Shown piece after piece: positions 3,325-60,948 of a stretch of DNA of 64,000 bases (position 1 is the first letter of the stretch; each line of letters begins with the position of its first letter). The position numbers and the translations under genes are program-made. Source of the DNA: Verrucomicrobium spinosum DSM 4136 = JCM 18804 (GTDB taxonomy: Bacteria > Verrucomicrobiota > Verrucomicrobiia > Verrucomicrobiales > Verrucomicrobiaceae). A model generated the notes under the pieces. The model saw only the letters and a program-made list of their open reading frames with translations, did no database searches and was not told where the DNA came from. The stretch is from the NCBI RefSeq assembly GCF_000172155.1, contig NZ_ABIZ01000001.1, forward strand, positions 2,139,105 through 2,203,104, in the 5' to 3' direction.

Positions 3325-5127
3325 ATGCGACTGCTCCTCGCCAATCCTGCCGGCCTCTGGGCCCTCCTGGCCATCCCGGCTGTGTTGGTCATCCACTTCC
3401 TTCAGGAGCGCTCCCGGCGGCTGCGCGTGAGCACGCTCTTCCTCCTGGAAAGAGTGAGGCCGGAGAGCACGGGCGGGGCCAAGTTTGAGCGGCTGCGGAA
3501 CTCGGTGCCTCTCTGGCTCCAGCTCCTGGCGGCGCTCATCTTGACCTGGCTGCTGGTGGAGCCCCGCTGGATCAAGGAAGACTCCCGCCAGACGGTGGTG
3601 GTGGTGCTGGACAGCTCCGTCTCCATGGAGGCGTTCAAGGAGCCAACGCGTGAGCTGCTGGCAGAAAAACTGCGGGGCTGGAGCCGGGCGGCAGCGCGGA
3701 CGGAATGGCACCTGCTGGAGACGGATGTGCGCAAGCCCACTCTCTACACCGGGGCGGAGCTGGCCGGAGTGCTGCGGGCGTATGATGGCTGGAAGCCTGT
3801 GCTGGGCACTCACCGGCCGGATGAAGCCCTGCAAGTGGGCTCGGGTTTGGTGAAAGAACATGGCATCGTCATCTTTGTGACGGATCGCAAAGTGGACGTG
3901 GCTGCCGGAGTGGCGGTGCTCTCTGCGGGAGAGGAGATTGAGAACGTTGGCTGGGCCGGGGTGGAGACGACTCTGGTCAAGCCGGGGGTTGCCGACTCAG
4001 GCGTGAAGTGGTCGGTGCTGGTACGCAACTATGGCAAAGCACCGCAGACCCGCCAGTGGTGGGTGGAGCAGGAGGGGGGCACGGAGCCGAAGCGCTCCAG
4101 TCTGACCTTGGCCCCAGGACAGACCGGAGAACTGGGCGGCGAGCTGCCGCCGGGCGTGGATCGGGCCACGCTGGTGCTGAGCGGAGACCAGTTCACCTGG
4201 GATGATCGCATGCCCTTGCAACGCCCCGTGGAACGGGTGGTGAATCTTGCGTTTGAGGCGGGTTCGGCCCCTGGGGCGGTGCTCAAGAAGATGATGCAGG
4301 CGTTGGATGGCGTGGCCGTGACGCCCGTCACCCAAGCACCTGACCTCACGGTGGCGGAACTGGGCAACCCGGTGAACACGGATGCGGTGCAGATTCTGGG
4401 GGGCGGAGGCGAGAATCTGCCGCTGGACGGCAGCTACACCGTGGCGGAGGACCATCCGCTCACCCGGGACCTCAACTGGATGAGCCTGTTGACTCCTCGT
4501 CCCATGGAGCTGGGCCTGACAGACCGGGACGAACCGTTGCTCTGGAAGGGCGGGCGCCCGCTGGCCCTGCTCCGGCATGACCTCACCGCCACCGGCACGC
4601 CAGTGCGTCGCCTGCTCCTGGCCTGGGACCTCTCCCAGTCGAATGCCGCCCGGCACCCGGCGTTGCTCGTGATGCTGCATCGTTATGTGGAGCAGTTGCG
4701 CCGGGCGAAGCGCGAGCCGTGGGCAGGCAACTTCGAAGCGGGTCAGAATCTGGATGTGCCTCCGCCGCTGGCCGCTTCTGGGGCAGCCCCGGCTGCGCTC
4801 ACGCTGCGTCGCGATGATGGCACTCGCGCAGAGTTCACGGGGCGCGTTCCGGATGGAGTCGGCTTCTTTGACCTGAAGGAAGGTGGTAAAACCATGATCC
4901 GTGGGGCCATTCATTTTGCCGACACTCGTGAAGCAGATTTCCGTGAGGCCGCTCCGCTGGATACAGTGGATGCGCGGCGCTGGGAGGCCGCCCTCAAACA
5001 AACGGAGGCCGATCCGCTGACGGGCCTGTGGGTGCTGCTGGTGCTCGGCTGTCTGCTGGGGGCCTGGGGCTGGCGGTCCGGCCCGGCGCGTGCGTCTGCC
5101 GGCTCCATCGTCGCCGCCCGAAGCTGA
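3325..5127 (+). CDS. BatA-N-terminal-domain (aerotolerance regulator N-terminal) membrane protein
   Basis: N-terminus MRLLLANPAGLWALLAIPAVLVIHFLQERSRRLRVSTLFLL…LQLLAALILTWLLVEPRW has the typical BatA_N architecture. C-terminal TM helix. Confidence 0.65.
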   Translation: MRLLLANPAGLWALLAIPAVLVIHFLQERSRRLRVSTLFLLERVRPESTGGAKFERLRNSVPLWLQLLAALILTWLLVEPRWIKEDSRQTVVVVLDSSVSMEAFKEPTRELLAEKLRGWSRAAARTEWHLLETDVRKPTLYTGAELAGVLRAYDGWKPVLGTHRPDEALQVGSGLVKEHGIVIFVTDRKVDVAAGVAVLSAGEEIENVGWAGVETTLVKPGVADSGVKWSVLVRNYGKAPQTRQWWVEQEGGTEPKRSSLTLAPGQTGELGGELPPGVDRATLVLSGDQFTWDDRMPLQRPVERVVNLAFEAGSAPGAVLKKMMQALDGVAVTPVTQAPDLTVAELGNPVNTDAVQILGGGGENLPLDGSYTVAEDHPLTRDLNWMSLLTPRPMELGLTDRDEPLLWKGGRPLALLRHDLTATGTPVRRLLLAWDLSQSNAARHPALLVMLHRYVEQLRRAKREPWAGNFEAGQNLDVPPPLAASGAAPAALTLRRDDGTRAEFTGRVPDGVGFFDLKEGGKTMIRGAIHFADTREADFREAAPLDTVDARRWEAALKQTEADPLTGLWVLLVLGCLLGAWGWRSGPARASAGSIVAARS

Positions 5128-11679: not shown

Positions 11680-11789
11680 GTCAGTGCGTCAGTGCGTCAG
11701 TGCGTCAGTGCGTCAGTGCGTCAGTGCGTCAGTGCGTCAGTGCGTCAGTGCGTCAGTGCGTCAGTGCGTCAGTGCGTCAGTGCGTCAGT
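11680..11789. repeat. Octamer microsatellite (GTCAGTGC)x13.6
   Basis: 13 perfect tandem units read directly from the sequence. Followed by gtttttgggttcgaggtaa, the same right flank as the locus at 29045. Confidence 0.95.
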
Positions 11790-29044: not shown

Positions 29045-29107
29045 GTCAGTGCGTCAGTGCGTCAGTGCGTCAGTGCGTCAGTGCGTCAGTGCGTCAGTGC
29101 GTCAGTT
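29045..29107. repeat. Octamer microsatellite (GTCAGTGC)x7.8, starting at the base after the TAG stop
   Basis: Direct reading. Same unit and same right flank (gtt.gggttcgaggtaa) as the locus at 11680. Confidence 0.95.
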
Positions 29108-30292: not shown

Positions 30293-30420
30293 GGTGCGTT
30301 GGTGCGTTGGTGCGTTGGTGCGTTGGTGCGTTGGTGCGTTGGTGCGTTGGTGCGTTGGTGCGTTGGTGCGTTGGTGCGTTGGTGCGTTGGTGCGTTGGTG
30401 CGTTGGTGCGTTGGTGCGTT
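30293..30420. repeat. Octamer microsatellite (GGTGCGTT)x16, starting 2 bp after the folD stop
   Basis: 16 perfect units read directly. Confidence 0.95.
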
Positions 30421-30439
30421 GATTTGCGTGTTATCTCAT

Positions 30440-30704
30440 GAACCCGGAGGGTTCGCCATGAGTAGCCATGGGTCGGCGGAGCGTAGCGAGGCCTACCCAT
30501 GGAAGTCTGGACGAAGGTTTCTACCGCGCAGGGGTAGGCCGATCGCGTTGCGAACCCCACACGAGATCCCGCCACACCACCCACTCAGACTTTGGTCGCC
30601 ATGGGCCTACCGCTCCGCGGTAGAAATCTCCATGTTGCTGTCCACGGGTAGCCATCGCTTCGTTCGGTCCACCCGTGGCTACTCATGGTGAACCCTCCGG
30701 GTTC
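30440..30704. repeat. MITE-like element with 34-bp terminal inverted repeats and nested internal palindromes (265 bp)
   Basis: Left end gaacccggagggttcgccatgagtagccatgggt, right end acccgtggctactcatggtgaaccctccgggttc (32/34 complementary). Internal tctaccgcg…cgcggtaga and ggcctacccatgg…ccatgggcctac. Confidence 0.55.
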
Positions 30705-30766
30705 GGCGTATGATGGAAGGTTCTAGGTGGTGACGACTTGGTCAGGGTGGGAGGTTGTTCGTAGTT

Positions 30767-32899: not shown

Positions 32900-33608
32900 A
32901 AAATGCAGGGTAATGAGGTGCGAGGGGAATCTTGGATGACGATATGAGTGGTAGTTTCCTGGTGTCCCGTTTGCAGACGAGAGAGCGAGGCGTGGGCCTT
33001 GGGCGCACGTATTCCCTGTGCCGTTGACCCGGAGGCGGACCTCCGGCGGAGACACCAGATGGAATTGGGGGCGTATTACCGCGAACCGTGTCGCGGTGGC
33101 ACGGGAAGATTCAGAACCTGAACCCTAGGGCGCGATGGGGCGCAGGAAGGGCTGGTGGGATGACGGACTGCCGTGCAGCCGTCGGTGAATGGCGTGGCGC
33201 CGGTGCGTTGAGCAGTTGGCGCTGGCTGGGTATTTCATGTTCTCGTTGACCTTGCCGAACGAGACGGTCACCCGCCACGTGCAGCATGTTGCTGTTGGGG
33301 AGACCATGAAGCCTGCGAAGCAGACCCCAGAGAGATCGTCCCTCCCAAAATTGCCTGCGAGGTTAGCTGACGGGCTGGACCTTGGAAGTGGTCCCTGCAA
33401 GCGGTTGCCCGCTTCGTTCGCCCCGTCCTGATTCTCTTGCGAAAACCAGGAGTTCGGTTCCCCCGCGCCACTACTGAGGAAGCAGTAATGACTTCGGCTG
33501 ACAGTGGGATGTTATTCCATGGACCTTTTTTGTCAAATGGAACCGGTGACACCCCGGGCGGACCCTGCGCAAGTCCTTGTGATTCATGCTTGAAGTTGCG
33601 GGCGTTCG

Positions 33609-45884: not shown

Positions 45885-46550
45885 GTGGGGAAGAGCCGTC
45901 CCGGCTCTTGGGGGAGCTGGGTGGTGCGTGGACAAGAACCGAGACGGTTCTTCTACCATGGCGGTTGCCCGCGAGAGAGAAGGTAGAGGAGCCGTCCCGG
46001 CTCTTGGGTGCGCTGGATGGTGCGGGGACAAGAACCGGGACGGTTCTTCTACCCTGGCTGATGTCCGCGAGAGGGAATGTGGAAGAGCCGTCCCGGCTCT
46101 TGGGTGCGCTGGGTGACGCGTGGACAAGAACCGGGACGGTTCTTCTACCGTGGCGGTTGCCCGCGAGAGAGAAGGTAGAAGAGCCGTCCCGGCTCTTGGG
46201 TGCGCTGGATGGTGCGTGGACAAGAACCGGGACGGTTCTTCTACCGTGGCGGTTGCCTGCGAGAGAGAAGGTAGAGGAGCCGTCCCGGCTCTTGGGTGCG
46301 CTGGATGGTGCGGGGACAAGAACCGAGACGGTTCTTCTACCGTGGCGGTTGCCTGCGAGAGAGAATGTAGAAGAGCCGTCCCGGCTCTTGGGTGCGCTGG
46401 GTGACGCGTGGACAAGAACCGGGACGGTTCTTCTACCGTGGCGGTTGCCCGAGAGAGAGAATGTAGAAGAGCCGTCCCGGCTCTTGGGTGCGCTGGGTGA
46501 CGCGTGGACAAGAACCGGGACGGTTCTTCTACTATGGCGGATTTCCGCAC
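45885..46550. repeat. REPIN array: 7 tandem 96-bp units, each GTAG + AGAGCCG-TCC-CGGCTCT hairpin, 26-nt spacer and inverted AGAACCG-GGA-CGGTTCT hairpin
   Basis: Unit starts at 45890, 45986, 46082, 46178, 46274, 46370 and 46466 (exact 96-bp period). Fills the whole DUF1501-RAYT intergenic space. Confidence 0.9.
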
Positions 46551-46573
46551 GTAGCTTAGAGCTGTGAGGATAT

Positions 46574-47302
46574 TCAAGTGTTGGTTCCTTCGCTCAACTG
46601 CCTATTGCTCCCCACATATTCTGGATGTTCGCGAATGTAGTTCCGGATTCGCTCCAGACTGGCGCGGCTGCGCACGATGTGGTCGAAAGACTCGCGTTGC
46701 CATACCCTGCGATTCGGAAAATGAGATCGCAGCCCAGGCAGATGATCATCGATGATTTTGTTGAGTCGATGCGCTGAGTAGGACTTCCAAGAATGCAGAA
46801 TCTTGGAGAGATCATGTTCGGGATTTGGCGTCAAGATGGCGTGGACATGGTTTGACGCTACGACGTACTCGTCCAACTCGTAGCGAGCTCCAGCAAAATG
46901 ACGGATGGTTTGGGATGCGGAGTCCTTTGCGGGTTGATGGCTTAAAAGGCATGAACCACTGTTTGCATCCAACCAGCGCTGGAGACGCCTGGGAAATCGA
47001 TCATAGTACTCCTGACGGGTTAGCTTGTCATGAGGTTCGGGATGGCGCTTGAGCCAGTCTTCTCGATCCAGATGCCATTGATGTAGCTTGTCTTGAGGCA
47101 AAGCATCAGCCAGTCGAAAGGTGATGAAATAGGTCGTCGAGGCCTGCCTCCAATGTGGAAGATTCCCCGAAAGCACTTCTGTCGGAACGAGCTCTGAGTA
47201 GTAGACCCGGCTCTCATCTGGATTGGGAACGGGTTTATCCGGGGAATCCATGCGAAAACGAAGTGGCAGGTGTGCGGTAAAAGCCTGCCCATGTTGCGCC
47301 AT
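46574..47302 (-). CDS. REP-associated tyrosine transposase (RAYT; IS200-like HuH Y1 family)
   Basis: YYSELVPTEV… leads into the N-terminal TnpA_REP-like segment. HuH motif VVASNHVHAIL. WQRESFDHIVRS Tyr region. 242 aa, typical RAYT size. Flanked on both sides by REPIN arrays. Confidence 0.8.
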   Translation of the reverse strand: MAQHGQAFTAHLPLRFRMDSPDKPVPNPDESRVYYSELVPTEVLSGNLPHWRQASTTYFITFRLADALPQDKLHQWHLDREDWLKRHPEPHDKLTRQEYYDRFPRRLQRWLDANSGSCLLSHQPAKDSASQTIRHFAGARYELDEYVVASNHVHAILTPNPEHDLSKILHSWKSYSAHRLNKIIDDHLPGLRSHFPNRRVWQRESFDHIVRSRASLERIRNYIREHPEYVGSNRQLSEGTNT

Positions 47303-47319
47303 GGTTTGGTTGGGCGCAA

Positions 47320-47575
47320 CCGACTCTTGGGAGTGCTGAGCCGTGCGGGGGCAAGAACCGGGACGGTTCTTCTACCCTGGCTGATGTCCGCGAGGGGGAA
47401 AGTGGAAGAGCCGTCTCGGCTCTTGATGGCGCTGAGCCGTGCGGGGGCAAGAACCGGGACGGTTCTTCTACCCTGGCTGATGTCCGCGAGGGGGGAAAGT
47501 GGAAGAGCCGTCTCGGCTCTTGATGGCGCTGGGCCGTGCGGGGCCAAGAACCGGGACGGTTCTTCTACTGTCCGG
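47320..47575. repeat. REPIN array (2.5 units of the same 96/97-bp unit) on the other side of the RAYT gene
   Basis: caagaaccgggacggttcttctaccctggctgatgtccgcgagggggaaagtggaagagccgtctcggctcttgatggcgctg repeats at 47352, 47448 and 47545. Confidence 0.85.
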
Positions 47576-57125: not shown

Positions 57126-57146
57126 GTGGGGGGGGCGGGAGCGGGA

Positions 57147-57226
57147 GTGATGGAGTGATGGAGTGATGGAGTGATGGAGTGATGGAGTGATGGAGTGATG
57201 GAGTGATGGAGTGATGGAGTGATGGA
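57147..57226. repeat. Octamer microsatellite (GTGATGGA)x10, 22 bp after the GNAT stop
   Basis: 10 perfect units read directly. Confidence 0.95.
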
Positions 57227-57356
57227 GTGGGCTTCTGGGAAGCTTGGGGAGCGCACGCATCTTGCGTGCTGTTCTCGGCATCTTGCCGGGAACGTCAGTC
57301 AGGGCGTTGTCGCGAAATGCACGTCCATATGGGAATGTGTCGTCGCTGCTGGAAAT

Positions 57357-58623: not shown

Positions 58624-59421
58624 ATGGTTATTCCTACAGACAGCTTGAAGGGAAAGGTAGCTGTGGTGACGGGTGCCGGTTCTGGACTGGGCAAAGCCAC
58701 TGCAAAGGTCCTGGCACATGCCGGGGCCAGGGTGCTGGTGTTGGGGCGTACCGCAGAGGAGATTCAGTGCACCGCAGAGGAGATCCATCACGGTGGCGGC
58801 GAGGCCATGGCTATCGAGGCAGATGTGGCCAAGGATGCAGATGTGAAGGCTGCCATGGCCCGGGCGGTAGGGACGGAGGGGCGAATTGACGTGGTATTTG
58901 CCAACGCCGGGATCAATGGCGTCTGGGCACCCATTGAGCTGATTGAGGAGAAAGAATGGGATGAGACCCTGGCCATCAATCTCAAGGGGACCTTCCTGAC
59001 GATCAAGCATGCCCTGCCTTTCATGAGGCAAGAGGGCGGTTCCGTGGTGGTGACCGCTTCGATCAATGGTACTCGCATTTTCAGCAACTCAGGAGCAACG
59101 GCCTATGCGTGCTCCAAGGCGGGGCAGGTGGCGCTGGTGAAGATGCTGGCGCTGGAACTGGCGCGCCATCGCATTCGGGTGAATGTCATTTGTCCTGGAG
59201 CGATTGAGAGCCGGATCGATGAGTCAACTGAGAAGCGGGAGCTGGAAGGGATTCACCTCCCGGTCGAGTTTCCGCAGGGGAATGTGCCCCTGACGGGAGG
59301 CGGGGCGGGGGCTGCAGGTCAGGTGGCAGAGCTGGTGTGGTTTCTGGCTTCTGACCTTTCATCGCACATTACGGGGACCGAGGTTTATATTGATGGGGCG
59401 CAGTCGTTGTTGCAGGGGTGA
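58624..59421 (+). CDS. SDR family oxidoreductase
   Basis: VTGAGSGLGKA (TGxxxGxG), NAG, and YxxxK (YACSKAGQVALVK). Confidence 0.85.
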   Translation: MVIPTDSLKGKVAVVTGAGSGLGKATAKVLAHAGARVLVLGRTAEEIQCTAEEIHHGGGEAMAIEADVAKDADVKAAMARAVGTEGRIDVVFANAGINGVWAPIELIEEKEWDETLAINLKGTFLTIKHALPFMRQEGGSVVVTASINGTRIFSNSGATAYACSKAGQVALVKMLALELARHRIRVNVICPGAIESRIDESTEKRELEGIHLPVEFPQGNVPLTGGGAGAAGQVAELVWFLASDLSSHITGTEVYIDGAQSLLQG

Positions 59422-59429
59422 GGGGGAAG

Positions 59430-59503
59430 GAATTAGAAATTAGAAATTAGAAATTAGGAATGATGAATTAGGAATGATGAATTAGGAATGATGAATTAGG
59501 AAT
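59430..59503. repeat. Compound microsatellite (GAAATTA)x4 + (GAATGATGAATTAG)x3, 9 bp after the SDR stop
   Basis: Direct reading. Confidence 0.9.
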
Positions 59504-59508
59504 GGGGG

Positions 59509-60125
59509 CACGAGCTTCAAGCTCCCTCCTGGTGCGGCCTTGCTCGTGACTCGTGGCTGCGTTTGTCAAAACGCGGTCAGAGGCGTTGCTTGCACCTCAA
59601 GGCAGCAAGCCATCCTTTACGGTCGCCTGCACCCACGCATTCTTACGAATGCGTCCACGAGCTTCAAGCTCCCTCCTGGTGCGGCCCTGTTCGTGACTCG
59701 TGGCTGCGTTTGTTAAAACGCGGTCAGCGGCGTTTCTTGGACCTTAGGGAAGCAAGCCATCCGTTACCGTCGCCCGCACCCACGCATTCTTACGAATGCA
59801 TCCACGAGCATCGAGTTGCCTCGTGGTGCGGCCCTGTTCGTGACTCGTGGCTGCGTTTGTTAAAACGCGGTCAGCGGCGTTTCTTGGACCTTAGGGAAGC
59901 AAGCCATCCGTTACCGTCGCCCGCACCCACGCATTCTTACGAATGCATCCACGAGCATCGAGTTGCCTCGTGGTGCGGCCCTGTTCGTGACTCGTGGCTG
60001 CGTTTGTCAAAACGCGGTCAGAGGCGTCGCTTGCACCTCAAGGCAGCAAGCCATCCCGCATGGTCGCCCGCACCTACGCATTCTTACGAATGCGTCCACG
60101 AGCTTCGAGTTCGCCCTCGTGATCG
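59509..60125. repeat. Tandem array of a 147-bp hairpin-rich unit, 4.2 copies, in an A-B-B-A variant order
   Basis: Unit starts (cacgagc…) at 59509, 59656, 59803, 59950 and 60097. Each unit carries CACGAGC…GCTCGTG, GCGTTTG-TYAA-AACGC and CGCATTC-TTAC-GAATGCG palindromes. Units 2 and 3 are identical. Confidence 0.9.
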
Positions 60126-60162
60126 GTGTCCACTTCAGGGATGAATTGCAGAAAAGCCCGCG

Positions 60163-60948
60163 TTACCGCTCATACAAATCCGTCGCATCTGCCGCAGCGA
60201 GTTCGACCAAATAACTCGCAAGACGGCTGGAGAGCAGGGCGGCGTATTGGGCGCCTTTTTCCGCGGTGGATGCCGCTGGCGTGCCGCTGCCGGTGTCTTG
60301 GGTGGCCTGGGTCCAGGCACGTTGTGCCCAGGCCCATTTCTCCTTCATGGCCTGGAGCTTCCAGGCGTTGGCTTTGCCGTCGCCCCAGGTCTCTTTGGGC
60401 AGCACCAGCTCGGGATGAAAGTGGAGCATGAGGCTGGTCTCGCGTTCGTCGGCGTGATCCCCGAGCACGTCGAAGATGCCGGCACCGCTGTCGATATTGG
60501 GCCAGAAGACGGTGCTGAGAAAGATCTGGGGCCACTTGGCCTGGAGCTCCCGGAGCATCTGCTTGAAGTCACTTCCTCCGTGCCCGTTAAAGACCACGAG
60601 CTTGGGGATGCCTACGCCGACCAGGGAGGCAATGACATCATTCAAAAGCGCCAGCTGGGTGCTGGGGTTCATGTTGATGCAGAAGGGGATGTCGAGCTGA
60701 CCCGTCTGCACGCCGAAGGGGATGTTGGGCAGGATGGCCACCTTGGCCCCTTGTTCCCAGGCCTGGCGACCGGCTTCAGAGCAGAGGGCGACGTTCTGAA
60801 AGCTGTCGGTTCCGTAGGGAAGGTGCCAGTTGTGGGCCTCGGTGGCGCCCATGGGGAGCACGGCCACCTCATACTTGGTGGACTGGACCTGCTTCCAGTT
60901 GGTCTCGGCAATGATCCAGGGGCGGGGGGCGGAGGATGAGGTGGACAT
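60163..60948 (-). CDS. Creatininase-family amidohydrolase
   Basis: VAVLPMGATEAHNWHLPYGTDS…VVFNGHGG…DHADERETS are creatininase family blocks. Confidence 0.75.
   Translation of the reverse strand: MSTSSSAPRPWIIAETNWKQVQSTKYEVAVLPMGATEAHNWHLPYGTDSFQNVALCSEAGRQAWEQGAKVAILPNIPFGVQTGQLDIPFCINMNPSTQLALLNDVIASLVGVGIPKLVVFNGHGGSDFKQMLRELQAKWPQIFLSTVFWPNIDSGAGIFDVLGDHADERETSLMLHFHPELVLPKETWGDGKANAWKLQAMKEKWAWAQRAWTQATQDTGSGTPAASTAEKGAQYAALLSSRLASYLVELAAADATDLYER

Follow-up and report, generated by a model that had tools for sequence, protein, structure and literature searches.

Members of the repetitive extragenic palindromic (REP) super-family are imperfect palindromes of 20-40 nt with stems of 6-9 bp and an unpaired GTAG or GTRG tag on one side only, and they are found in extragenic DNA, downstream of open reading frames (ORFs) or between convergent ones. 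In E. coli, tandem copies of two REP types (y and z2 in the Bachellier/Gilson nomenclature) in inverse orientation form the BIME-2 (bacterial interspersed mosaic element) clusters, the linkers of which vary and the copy number of which differs among strains, and the binding of single-stranded REPs by TnpAREP requires both the GTAG and a mismatch in the stem (Ton-Hoang et al. 2012, PMC3333891). GTAG-tagged REPs are also present in the Planctomycetes-Verrucomicrobia-Chlamydiae (PVC) superphylum, and a study of these repeats reports that most elements of Opitutus terrae carry a GTGG tag, that REP dimers are often reiterated in tandem along with flanking DNA, that REPs favour positions 3' of ORFs and those between converging ORFs, and that one family of Thermomicrobium roseum, GTAG-23, is clustered at few loci (PMC3733652). 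Here we describe a tandem repeat of Verrucomicrobium spinosum DSM 4136 = JCM 18804, located at 59509-60125 of a 64,000-nt stretch of contig NZ_ABIZ01000001.1 (positions 2,139,105 to 2,203,104), which is called the window below and to which coordinates refer unless another locus is named. The repeat is a known kind of bacterial element, neither a new RNA nor a gene, and it is probably a locally amplified, BIME-2-like cluster of GTGG-tagged REP-like palindromes.

Tandem Repeats Finder delimited the array at 59509-60121, with a period of 147 bp, 4.2 copies, 92% matches and 0% indels, and start-to-start distances of 147, 147 and 147 were obtained in a separate repeat search. Together with the gene calls on both sides, these values bear out the period, the copy number and the setting between convergent genes that had been given in a preliminary description of the stretch. 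Unit pieces of 25-29 nt occurred four times in the window, always within the array, against none expected from shuffles. Unit alignment and the covariance model built for the repeat (R1) further resolved the whole array, from 59509 to 60125, as L2-[REP-a / linker L1 / REP-b / linker L2] x4, with eight REP-like hairpins.

Anatomy and covariation of the hairpins

Each unit contains two related 24-nt elements on opposite strands, separated by linkers of around 58 nt (L1) and 35 nt (L2). The first element, REP-a, reads CTCGTGG-CTGCGTTT-GTYA-AAACGCGG on the + strand, and the second, REP-b, reads CTCGTGG-AYGCATTC-GTAA-GAATGCGT on the - strand, the 24-nt element beginning at GTGG in both cases. They follow a common design, with an unpaired 5' GTGG abutting an 8-bp stem and then a GTNA loop, and the differences between their stems are all compensatory (C-G to A-T, G-C to A-T and T-A to C-G). 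Pattern searches and the covariance model placed the four REP-a copies at 59550-59580, 59697-59727, 59844-59874 and 59991-60021 (+ strand), with a GTCA loop in copies 1 and 4 and a GTTA loop in copies 2 and 3; copy 1 reads CTCGTGG-CTGCGTTT-GTCA-AAACGCGG-TCAG, with its GTGG at 59553-59556 and its hairpin at 59557-59576. By the same means the REP-b copies were placed at 59631-59661, 59778-59808, 59925-59955 and 60072-60102 (- strand), the first of them reading CTCGTGG-ACGCATTC-GTAA-GAATGCGT-GGGT and the second carrying ATGCATTC, with T.G at the second stem position. When the whole window was searched with the covariance model, eight matches of 43.7-45.2 bits were obtained, all of them copies of the array.

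Covariation was measured in an alignment of nine elements from four organisms, with 500 shuffles and slid registers as controls. All the stem cells were paired in the nine elements, and four of the eight pairs had changed on both sides; none of the 500 shuffles reached the pairing or the covariation observed, and the slid registers dropped to 24-53% paired. The second stem position was T.G in seven elements and C-G in the other two. The GTGG was invariant in 9/9 aligned elements, and the bases 5' of the tag and 3' of the stem varied, an invariant tag with variable flanks being the asymmetric tag-plus-palindrome layout of REPs. REP-a and the complement of REP-b are only around 73% complementary, which implies that each hairpin folds alone. 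The folding of the array greatly exceeds that of shuffles on both strands (z = -3.6 and -6.1), as is expected of palindromic DNA.

At least three stem-loops per unit had been announced in the preliminary description. Two of these are robust and kept across species, their exact forms being GCGTTT-GTYA-AAACGC, which extends to the 8-bp stem CTGCGTTT/AAACGCGG, and ACGCATTC-TTAC-GAATGCGT. The third, CACGAGC...GCTCGTG, is perfect in unit 1 only, and its stem sits in a linker that the related species does not conserve; one of its arms is complementary to the region of the REP-b tag, and the other duplicates part of the region of the REP-a tag.

Sequence comparison within the window showed that 59677-59860 is identical to 59824-60007, and the span of this exact direct duplicate of 184 bp (59677-60007) marks the most recent unit duplication, involving a unit that is missing from the draft assembly GCA_001313125.1. 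The duplicate shows that the local amplification of the cluster is recent, in agreement with what had been proposed from the sequence. The A-B-B-A order described at the same time depends on the register chosen: units 2 and 3 match at 142 of 147 positions when units start at 59509, as in that description, and at 147 of 147 in the 59550 register, the fact beneath being the 184-bp duplicate. In the same way, the variant attributed to units 1 and 4 in common was found in the REP-a loop and in part of linker 1, and not elsewhere in the unit alignment. Identity between units ranges from 77 to 100% in the 59550 register and from 86 to 97% in the 59509 register.

The array occupies the greater part of the interval between two genes that converge on it. 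Upstream lies a gene for a short-chain dehydrogenase/reductase (SDR; 58624-59421, + strand; Pfam adh_short, E=2e-52), and on the other side a gene for a creatininase-family amidohydrolase (60163-60948, - strand; Pfam Creatininase, E=6e-48), the stop codon of which is 37 nt from the array, REP-b copy 4 being the first REP downstream of it.

Relatives in other genomes

REP-a, rather than REP-b (GTGGAYGCATTCGTRAGAATGCGT), served as the query both in a scan of species-representative genomes, carried out with a 21-mer, and in a metagenome scan. The sole match among the species representatives was Verrucomicrobium sp. BvORR034, in which a tandem array with a period of 144 bp breaks two consecutive contigs (locus L006, 3897-4189). 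Its neighbours, convergent genes for an APH-family kinase and for the DNA polymerase III delta subunit, are unrelated to the flanking genes of the window, and in a tblastx comparison of this locus with the window the only matches were the repeat itself and one unrelated palindromic element. Between the two species, the REP-a block is 98% identical and the REP-b block 92% identical, against 55% for L1 and 38% for L2, and the REP-b loop changes from GTAA in V. spinosum to GTGA in BvORR034.

Without a single difference, the REP-a 24-mer recurs in V. spinosum, in BvORR034 and in an uncultured Verrucomicrobiae lineage, each time at a locus unrelated to the others. In the uncultured lineage, the metagenome scan detected a lone 24-mer that begins at the stop codon ending a small gene and precedes a dksA-like gene. 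All contigs from that species have this copy, relatives one step further away (93-95% HisS identity) lack synteny at the site, and the covariance model revealed no copy besides it in 79 kb from this lineage. A second metagenomic context contains an inverted dimer of the REP-a 24-mer and a partner, GTGG-CTGCACTC-GTCA-GAGTGCGG, in which the inner stem has been swapped compensatorily and the tag, stem base and loop are retained. The arrays of V. spinosum and BvORR034 are each bounded by convergent genes, and the two metagenomic loci have their elements at a stop codon or a few nucleotides after it; over the four contexts, the distance to the nearest stop codon ranges from none to a few tens of nucleotides. 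It had been suggested that a lack of expression and of other copies would reduce the repeat to a neutral minisatellite; related copies do exist in other genomes, at non-syntenic loci.

A shortened REP-a look-alike was also noticed on another uncultured Verrucomicrobiae contig (L026, 604-627, - strand), with the sequence GTGG-CTGCG-TTT-CGCGG-TC (15.8 bits, E=0.026), and it may be a decayed copy or a product of chance.

The RAYT-like locus and the reading as a REP cluster

A REPtron-like locus, outside the array and some 12 kb upstream of it, was recognised at 45890-47568 by Tandem Repeats Finder, pattern search, Pfam and NCBIfam. It consists of a gene for a Y1 transposase that resembles the REP-associated tyrosine transposases (RAYT) (46574-47302, - strand; Pfam Y1_Tnp, E=7e-11), with tandem arrays of 96/97-bp period on both sides, at 45890-46540 and 47335-47568 (6.8 and 2.4 copies). 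The best NCBIfam match of the protein is the REP-associated tyrosine transposase family, with 57 bits against 37 bits for IS200, and its homologues have been named "REP element-mobilizing transposase RayT" by JGI. The hairpins of the flanking arrays read GT(A/G)G-AAGAGCCG-TCC-CGGCTCTT on one strand and GTAG-AAGAACCG-TCC-CGGTTCTT on the other, with the consensus GT(A/G)G-AAGARCCG-TCC-CGGYTCTT in alternate orientation.

The resemblance of these arrays to the 147-bp array is one of design: a GT(A/G)G tag abuts a stem of 8 bp, two variants, distinguished by a compensatory change in the stem, alternate in orientation, the whole is reiterated in tandem, and a GGGTGC tail follows one hairpin, the 3' tail GGGTGC(G) being common to REP-b and to the first of the RAYT-flanking hairpins. 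In contrast, the stem AAGARCCG is unrelated to the stems CTGCGTTT and AYGCATTC of the 147-bp array, the loop is TCC (3 nt) instead of GTNA (4 nt), the period is 96 instead of 147 bp, and these arrays adjoin a transposase gene whereas the 147-bp array does not. The three closest homologues of the RAYT-like protein are flanked by hairpins of the AAGA..CG-TCC-CG..TCTT type, with covarying inner stems, and homologues from metagenomes (L011-L014) carry this type as well. As the same hairpin type stands beside the RAYT-like gene and its three homologues, this type appears cognate to the transposase clade, and REP-a and REP-b do not. Two hairpin families of one design are thus present within 64 kb, the first forming the arrays that belong to a RAYT-like gene and the second being an "orphan".

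Compared with the described systems, the array agrees with the general layout of REPs in its 8-bp stems with 4-nt loops, in its one-sided unpaired tag, here GTGG, and in its extragenic position between convergent ORFs. As in E. coli BIME-2, two distinct inverse REP types, REP-a (+) and REP-b (-), alternate four times with two kinds of linker in a head-to-tail reiteration in extragenic DNA; the copies at one locus are well conserved and the linkers differ between loci or species (38-55% identity across species, against 92-98% for the REP blocks); and a tetranucleotide tag stands 5' of an imperfect palindrome, the recurrent T.G in the stem being a possible counterpart of the mismatch of the E. 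coli REPs. It differs from BIME-2 in its tag (GTGG, not GTAG), in its shorter hairpins (8-bp stem, 4-nt loop), longer linkers and 147-bp period, in forming one cluster in the DNA scanned, and in that no cognate TnpAREP was found, the RAYT-like gene and its three homologues having the other hairpin type beside them. Inverted REP doublets are also reportedly the constituents of the Pseudomonas fluorescens REPINs (REP doublets forming hairpins) of Bertels and Rainey 2011, which are said to be regarded as the mobilised unit of RAYTs. The arms of a REPIN are near-identical and pair into one long hairpin, whereas REP-a and REP-b fold separately. The GTAG-20 repeats of O. terrae (Di Nocera et al. 2013) share with the array a verrucomicrobial host, a GTGG tag, a stem length within 6-9 bp, dimers that have their tags on the outer side and are reiterated in tandem with flanking DNA, and a tendency to lie 3' of ORFs or between convergent ones. 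The O. terrae repeats are highly abundant and also intragenic, whereas one cluster per genome was seen for the family of the array, and the likeness is one of architecture. The GTAG-23 family of T. roseum belongs to another phylum and has another sequence.

The REP-like nature of the repeat, which the preliminary description had offered as one of two possibilities, is supported by the same 5' GTGG on each strand, by the covariation of the stems and by the RAYT-flanking arrays of the same architecture. In characterised REP systems, a RAYT-type Y1 (HUH) transposase acts on the hairpins as single-stranded DNA. In the array, the hairpins would likewise be the selected or recognised parts, and a Y1 transposase may have mobilised or maintained them; the 147-bp dimer with its linkers has been reiterated four times head to tail, and local unequal recombination or slippage may have caused both the growth and the homogenisation of the array. 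Transcription from either of the convergent genes would then produce stable stem-loops at the 3' ends, with a possible effect at the RNA level, either protecting the mRNA or damping read-through. Read as a REP/BIME-type cluster, the array would account for a conspicuous unannotated repeat and for a spurious ORF of 193 aa, and Verrucomicrobium would be added to the short list of PVC bacteria in which GTAG/GTGG-tagged palindromes are documented. As the orphan hairpins have remained near-unchanged across species and their linkers have decayed, they could also offer a small natural experiment on what maintains REP hairpins, a transposase or a function in the host.

Several observations weigh against a BIME-2-like cluster. 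By architecture and location the array belongs to the REP super-family, and by the defining property, dispersal over the genome, it does not, as far as the DNA scanned shows: eight copies in one array were found in around 74 kb scanned, the covariance model detecting no further copy in the window (next best score, 13 bits) and none in around 10 kb past its end, and the 21-mer scan of the genome collection matched the BvORR034 array only. No cognate transposase was identified, the RAYT-like gene of the window and its closest homologues being flanked by the other hairpin type, and a tblastn search with the RAYT-like protein of the window against all the loci collected gave no match. The score of this protein is in addition below the equivalog cut-off of NCBIfam, which is 80 bits. 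A promoter and terminator scan found no intrinsic terminator within the array, and no promoter-like site either. Finally, the one count of units that differs from that of the window, 3.1 instead of 4.2 at the same locus of GCA_001313125.1, comes from an error-rich draft and may be due to assembly collapse.

The unit lost in that draft is part of the 184-bp exact duplicate, and assembly collapse is as likely as real variation. The draft is 99.4-99.7% identical to the window, with many indels. Single-base indels split genes in its contig BBFG01000062 (loci L001 / L030), where repeat counts are not to be trusted; the creatininase-family gene, for instance, is called there in two pieces (131 and 60 aa), and a further ORF of 61 aa matches nothing in Pfam. 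Logan short-read contigs that are 100% identical to the window stop at the edges of the array. The array thus breaks short-read assemblies, and it may vary in copy number, which would make it a possible typing locus.

Alternative explanations and other elements of the window

A first alternative, which we think unlikely, is that the GTGG-hairpin is a conserved protein-binding site or RNA 3'-end signal of Verrucomicrobiae, unrelated to any transposase and amplified by slippage. The 24-nt REP-a identical in three lineages at unrelated loci, the stop codon close by in four contexts, an apparently very low copy number per genome, which is atypical of selfish REPs, and the failure to find a cognate RAYT in the window or among the three closest homologues would all agree with it. 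On the other hand, the arrays beside the RAYT-like gene of the window have the same architecture, REP families at few loci have already been described (PMC3733652), no candidate binding protein is known, and the array lacks terminator-like U-tracts. A more specific form of this proposal, in which the hairpin is a low-copy functional signal at the 3' ends of genes (the site of a host protein, or a determinant of RNA 3' ends or stability) and not a selfish RAYT substrate, would explain why 24 nt are identical at unrelated loci, why each genome appears to have one locus and why no cognate transposase was found, and the Verrucomicrobium arrays would then be amplified versions of such a 3'-end signal; we regard it as distinctly unlikely.

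That each 147-nt unit, or the array as a whole, is transcribed from one strand and acts as an RNA (a sponge or a processed small RNA) is quite improbable. The excess of folding over shuffles on both strands and the covariation of the stems could be taken in its favour, as could the REP-b loop of the - strand, which is a GNRA tetraloop in both species (GUAA in V. spinosum, GUGA in BvORR034), and the location of the array just 3' of a gene on the - strand in both. However, Rfam gave nothing at the array, either at the gathering threshold on the whole window or at E<=10 on 59350-60250, and no sigma-70-like promoter was found in the scan. The linkers, around 60% of the unit, have no structure in common between the species, and lone hairpins are present in other genomes. 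Moreover, the GTGG is 5' of REP-a and of REP-b on opposite strands, so that no single transcript carries both in the conserved sense, as corresponds to a feature of the DNA. The tandem non-coding RNA contemplated in the preliminary description is not supported by these data. A scan for tRNA and tmRNA genes was also negative, and the REP-a loop of the - strand, UUGACAA, which mimics a Val anticodon loop, was rejected as a tRNA because it is not followed by a T-arm or an acceptor stem, and ARAGORN finds nothing.

A neutral local minisatellite with fortuitous palindromes is very improbable: the single locus in around 74 kb of the V. spinosum genome and the 184-bp duplicate, which indicates ongoing slippage or unequal exchange, would fit with it, but the hairpin blocks are conserved between species to a much higher degree than the linkers, the changes in the stems are compensatory, and the same hairpin occurs outside arrays in other genomes. 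A coding repeat protein encoded by the 193-aa ORF (59563-60144, + strand) is hardly credible, since, despite one of the six frames being open through the array and both periods, 147 and 144, being multiples of 3, the ORF has no Pfam match, three of six frames are open in BvORR034, the conserved blocks SWLRLSKRGQ and APTHS.EC are in one frame in V. spinosum and in two frames in BvORR034, and conservation tracks hairpins and not codons; its earlier dismissal as an artefact was therefore right. It was likewise correct to set CRISPR aside, as the whole 147-bp period is repeated, linkers included, and no unique spacers were found. A phage or viral origin was discarded after scans of viral collections with the REP-a and REP-b patterns came out empty.

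The periods of three of the hairpin arrays (147, 96 and 144 bp) are multiples of three, in such a way that spurious ORFs stay open, with 193, 238 and 267 aa in the window. This divisibility may be a coincidence, and it is a trap for gene callers.

Other repeats were observed in the same DNA. Tandem Repeats Finder and repeat search placed a microsatellite of 7/14 bp, (AATTAGGAATGATG)n, at 59428-59504, in the interval that separates the stop codon of the SDR gene from the array. It is one of five perfect microsatellites of 7-8-bp period, all intergenic, the others lying at 11680-11789, 29045-29106, 30293-30421 and 57144-57229. The units in the set are (GTCAGTGC)n, found twice, (GGTGCGTT)16, (GGAGTGAT)11 and (AATTAGGAATGATG)n, and four of the microsatellites start within around 20 nt after a stop codon, the exception being that at 11680-11789. 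Five such microsatellites per 64 kb are unusual in a bacterium, and similar ones are present in BvORR034 (locus L007, 240-325 and 4028-4058).

The tblastx cross-match with BvORR034 revealed a palindromic element of around 280 bp that resembles a miniature inverted-repeat transposable element, at around 30430-30720 in the window and around 4119-4370 in locus L007. Its ends are long inverted repeats (CATGAACCCGGAGGGTTCGCCATGAGTAGCCATGGGT... / ...ACCCGTGGCTACTCATGGTGAACCCTCCGGGTTCG), hairpins of the form CTACCGC-NNN-GCGGTAG lie inside, and it adjoins a microsatellite in both V. spinosum and BvORR034. The sole Rfam match in the window was a c-di-AMP riboswitch (ydaO/yuaA leader, RF00379) at 33337-33509 (- strand), with 60.8 bits against a gathering score of 38.

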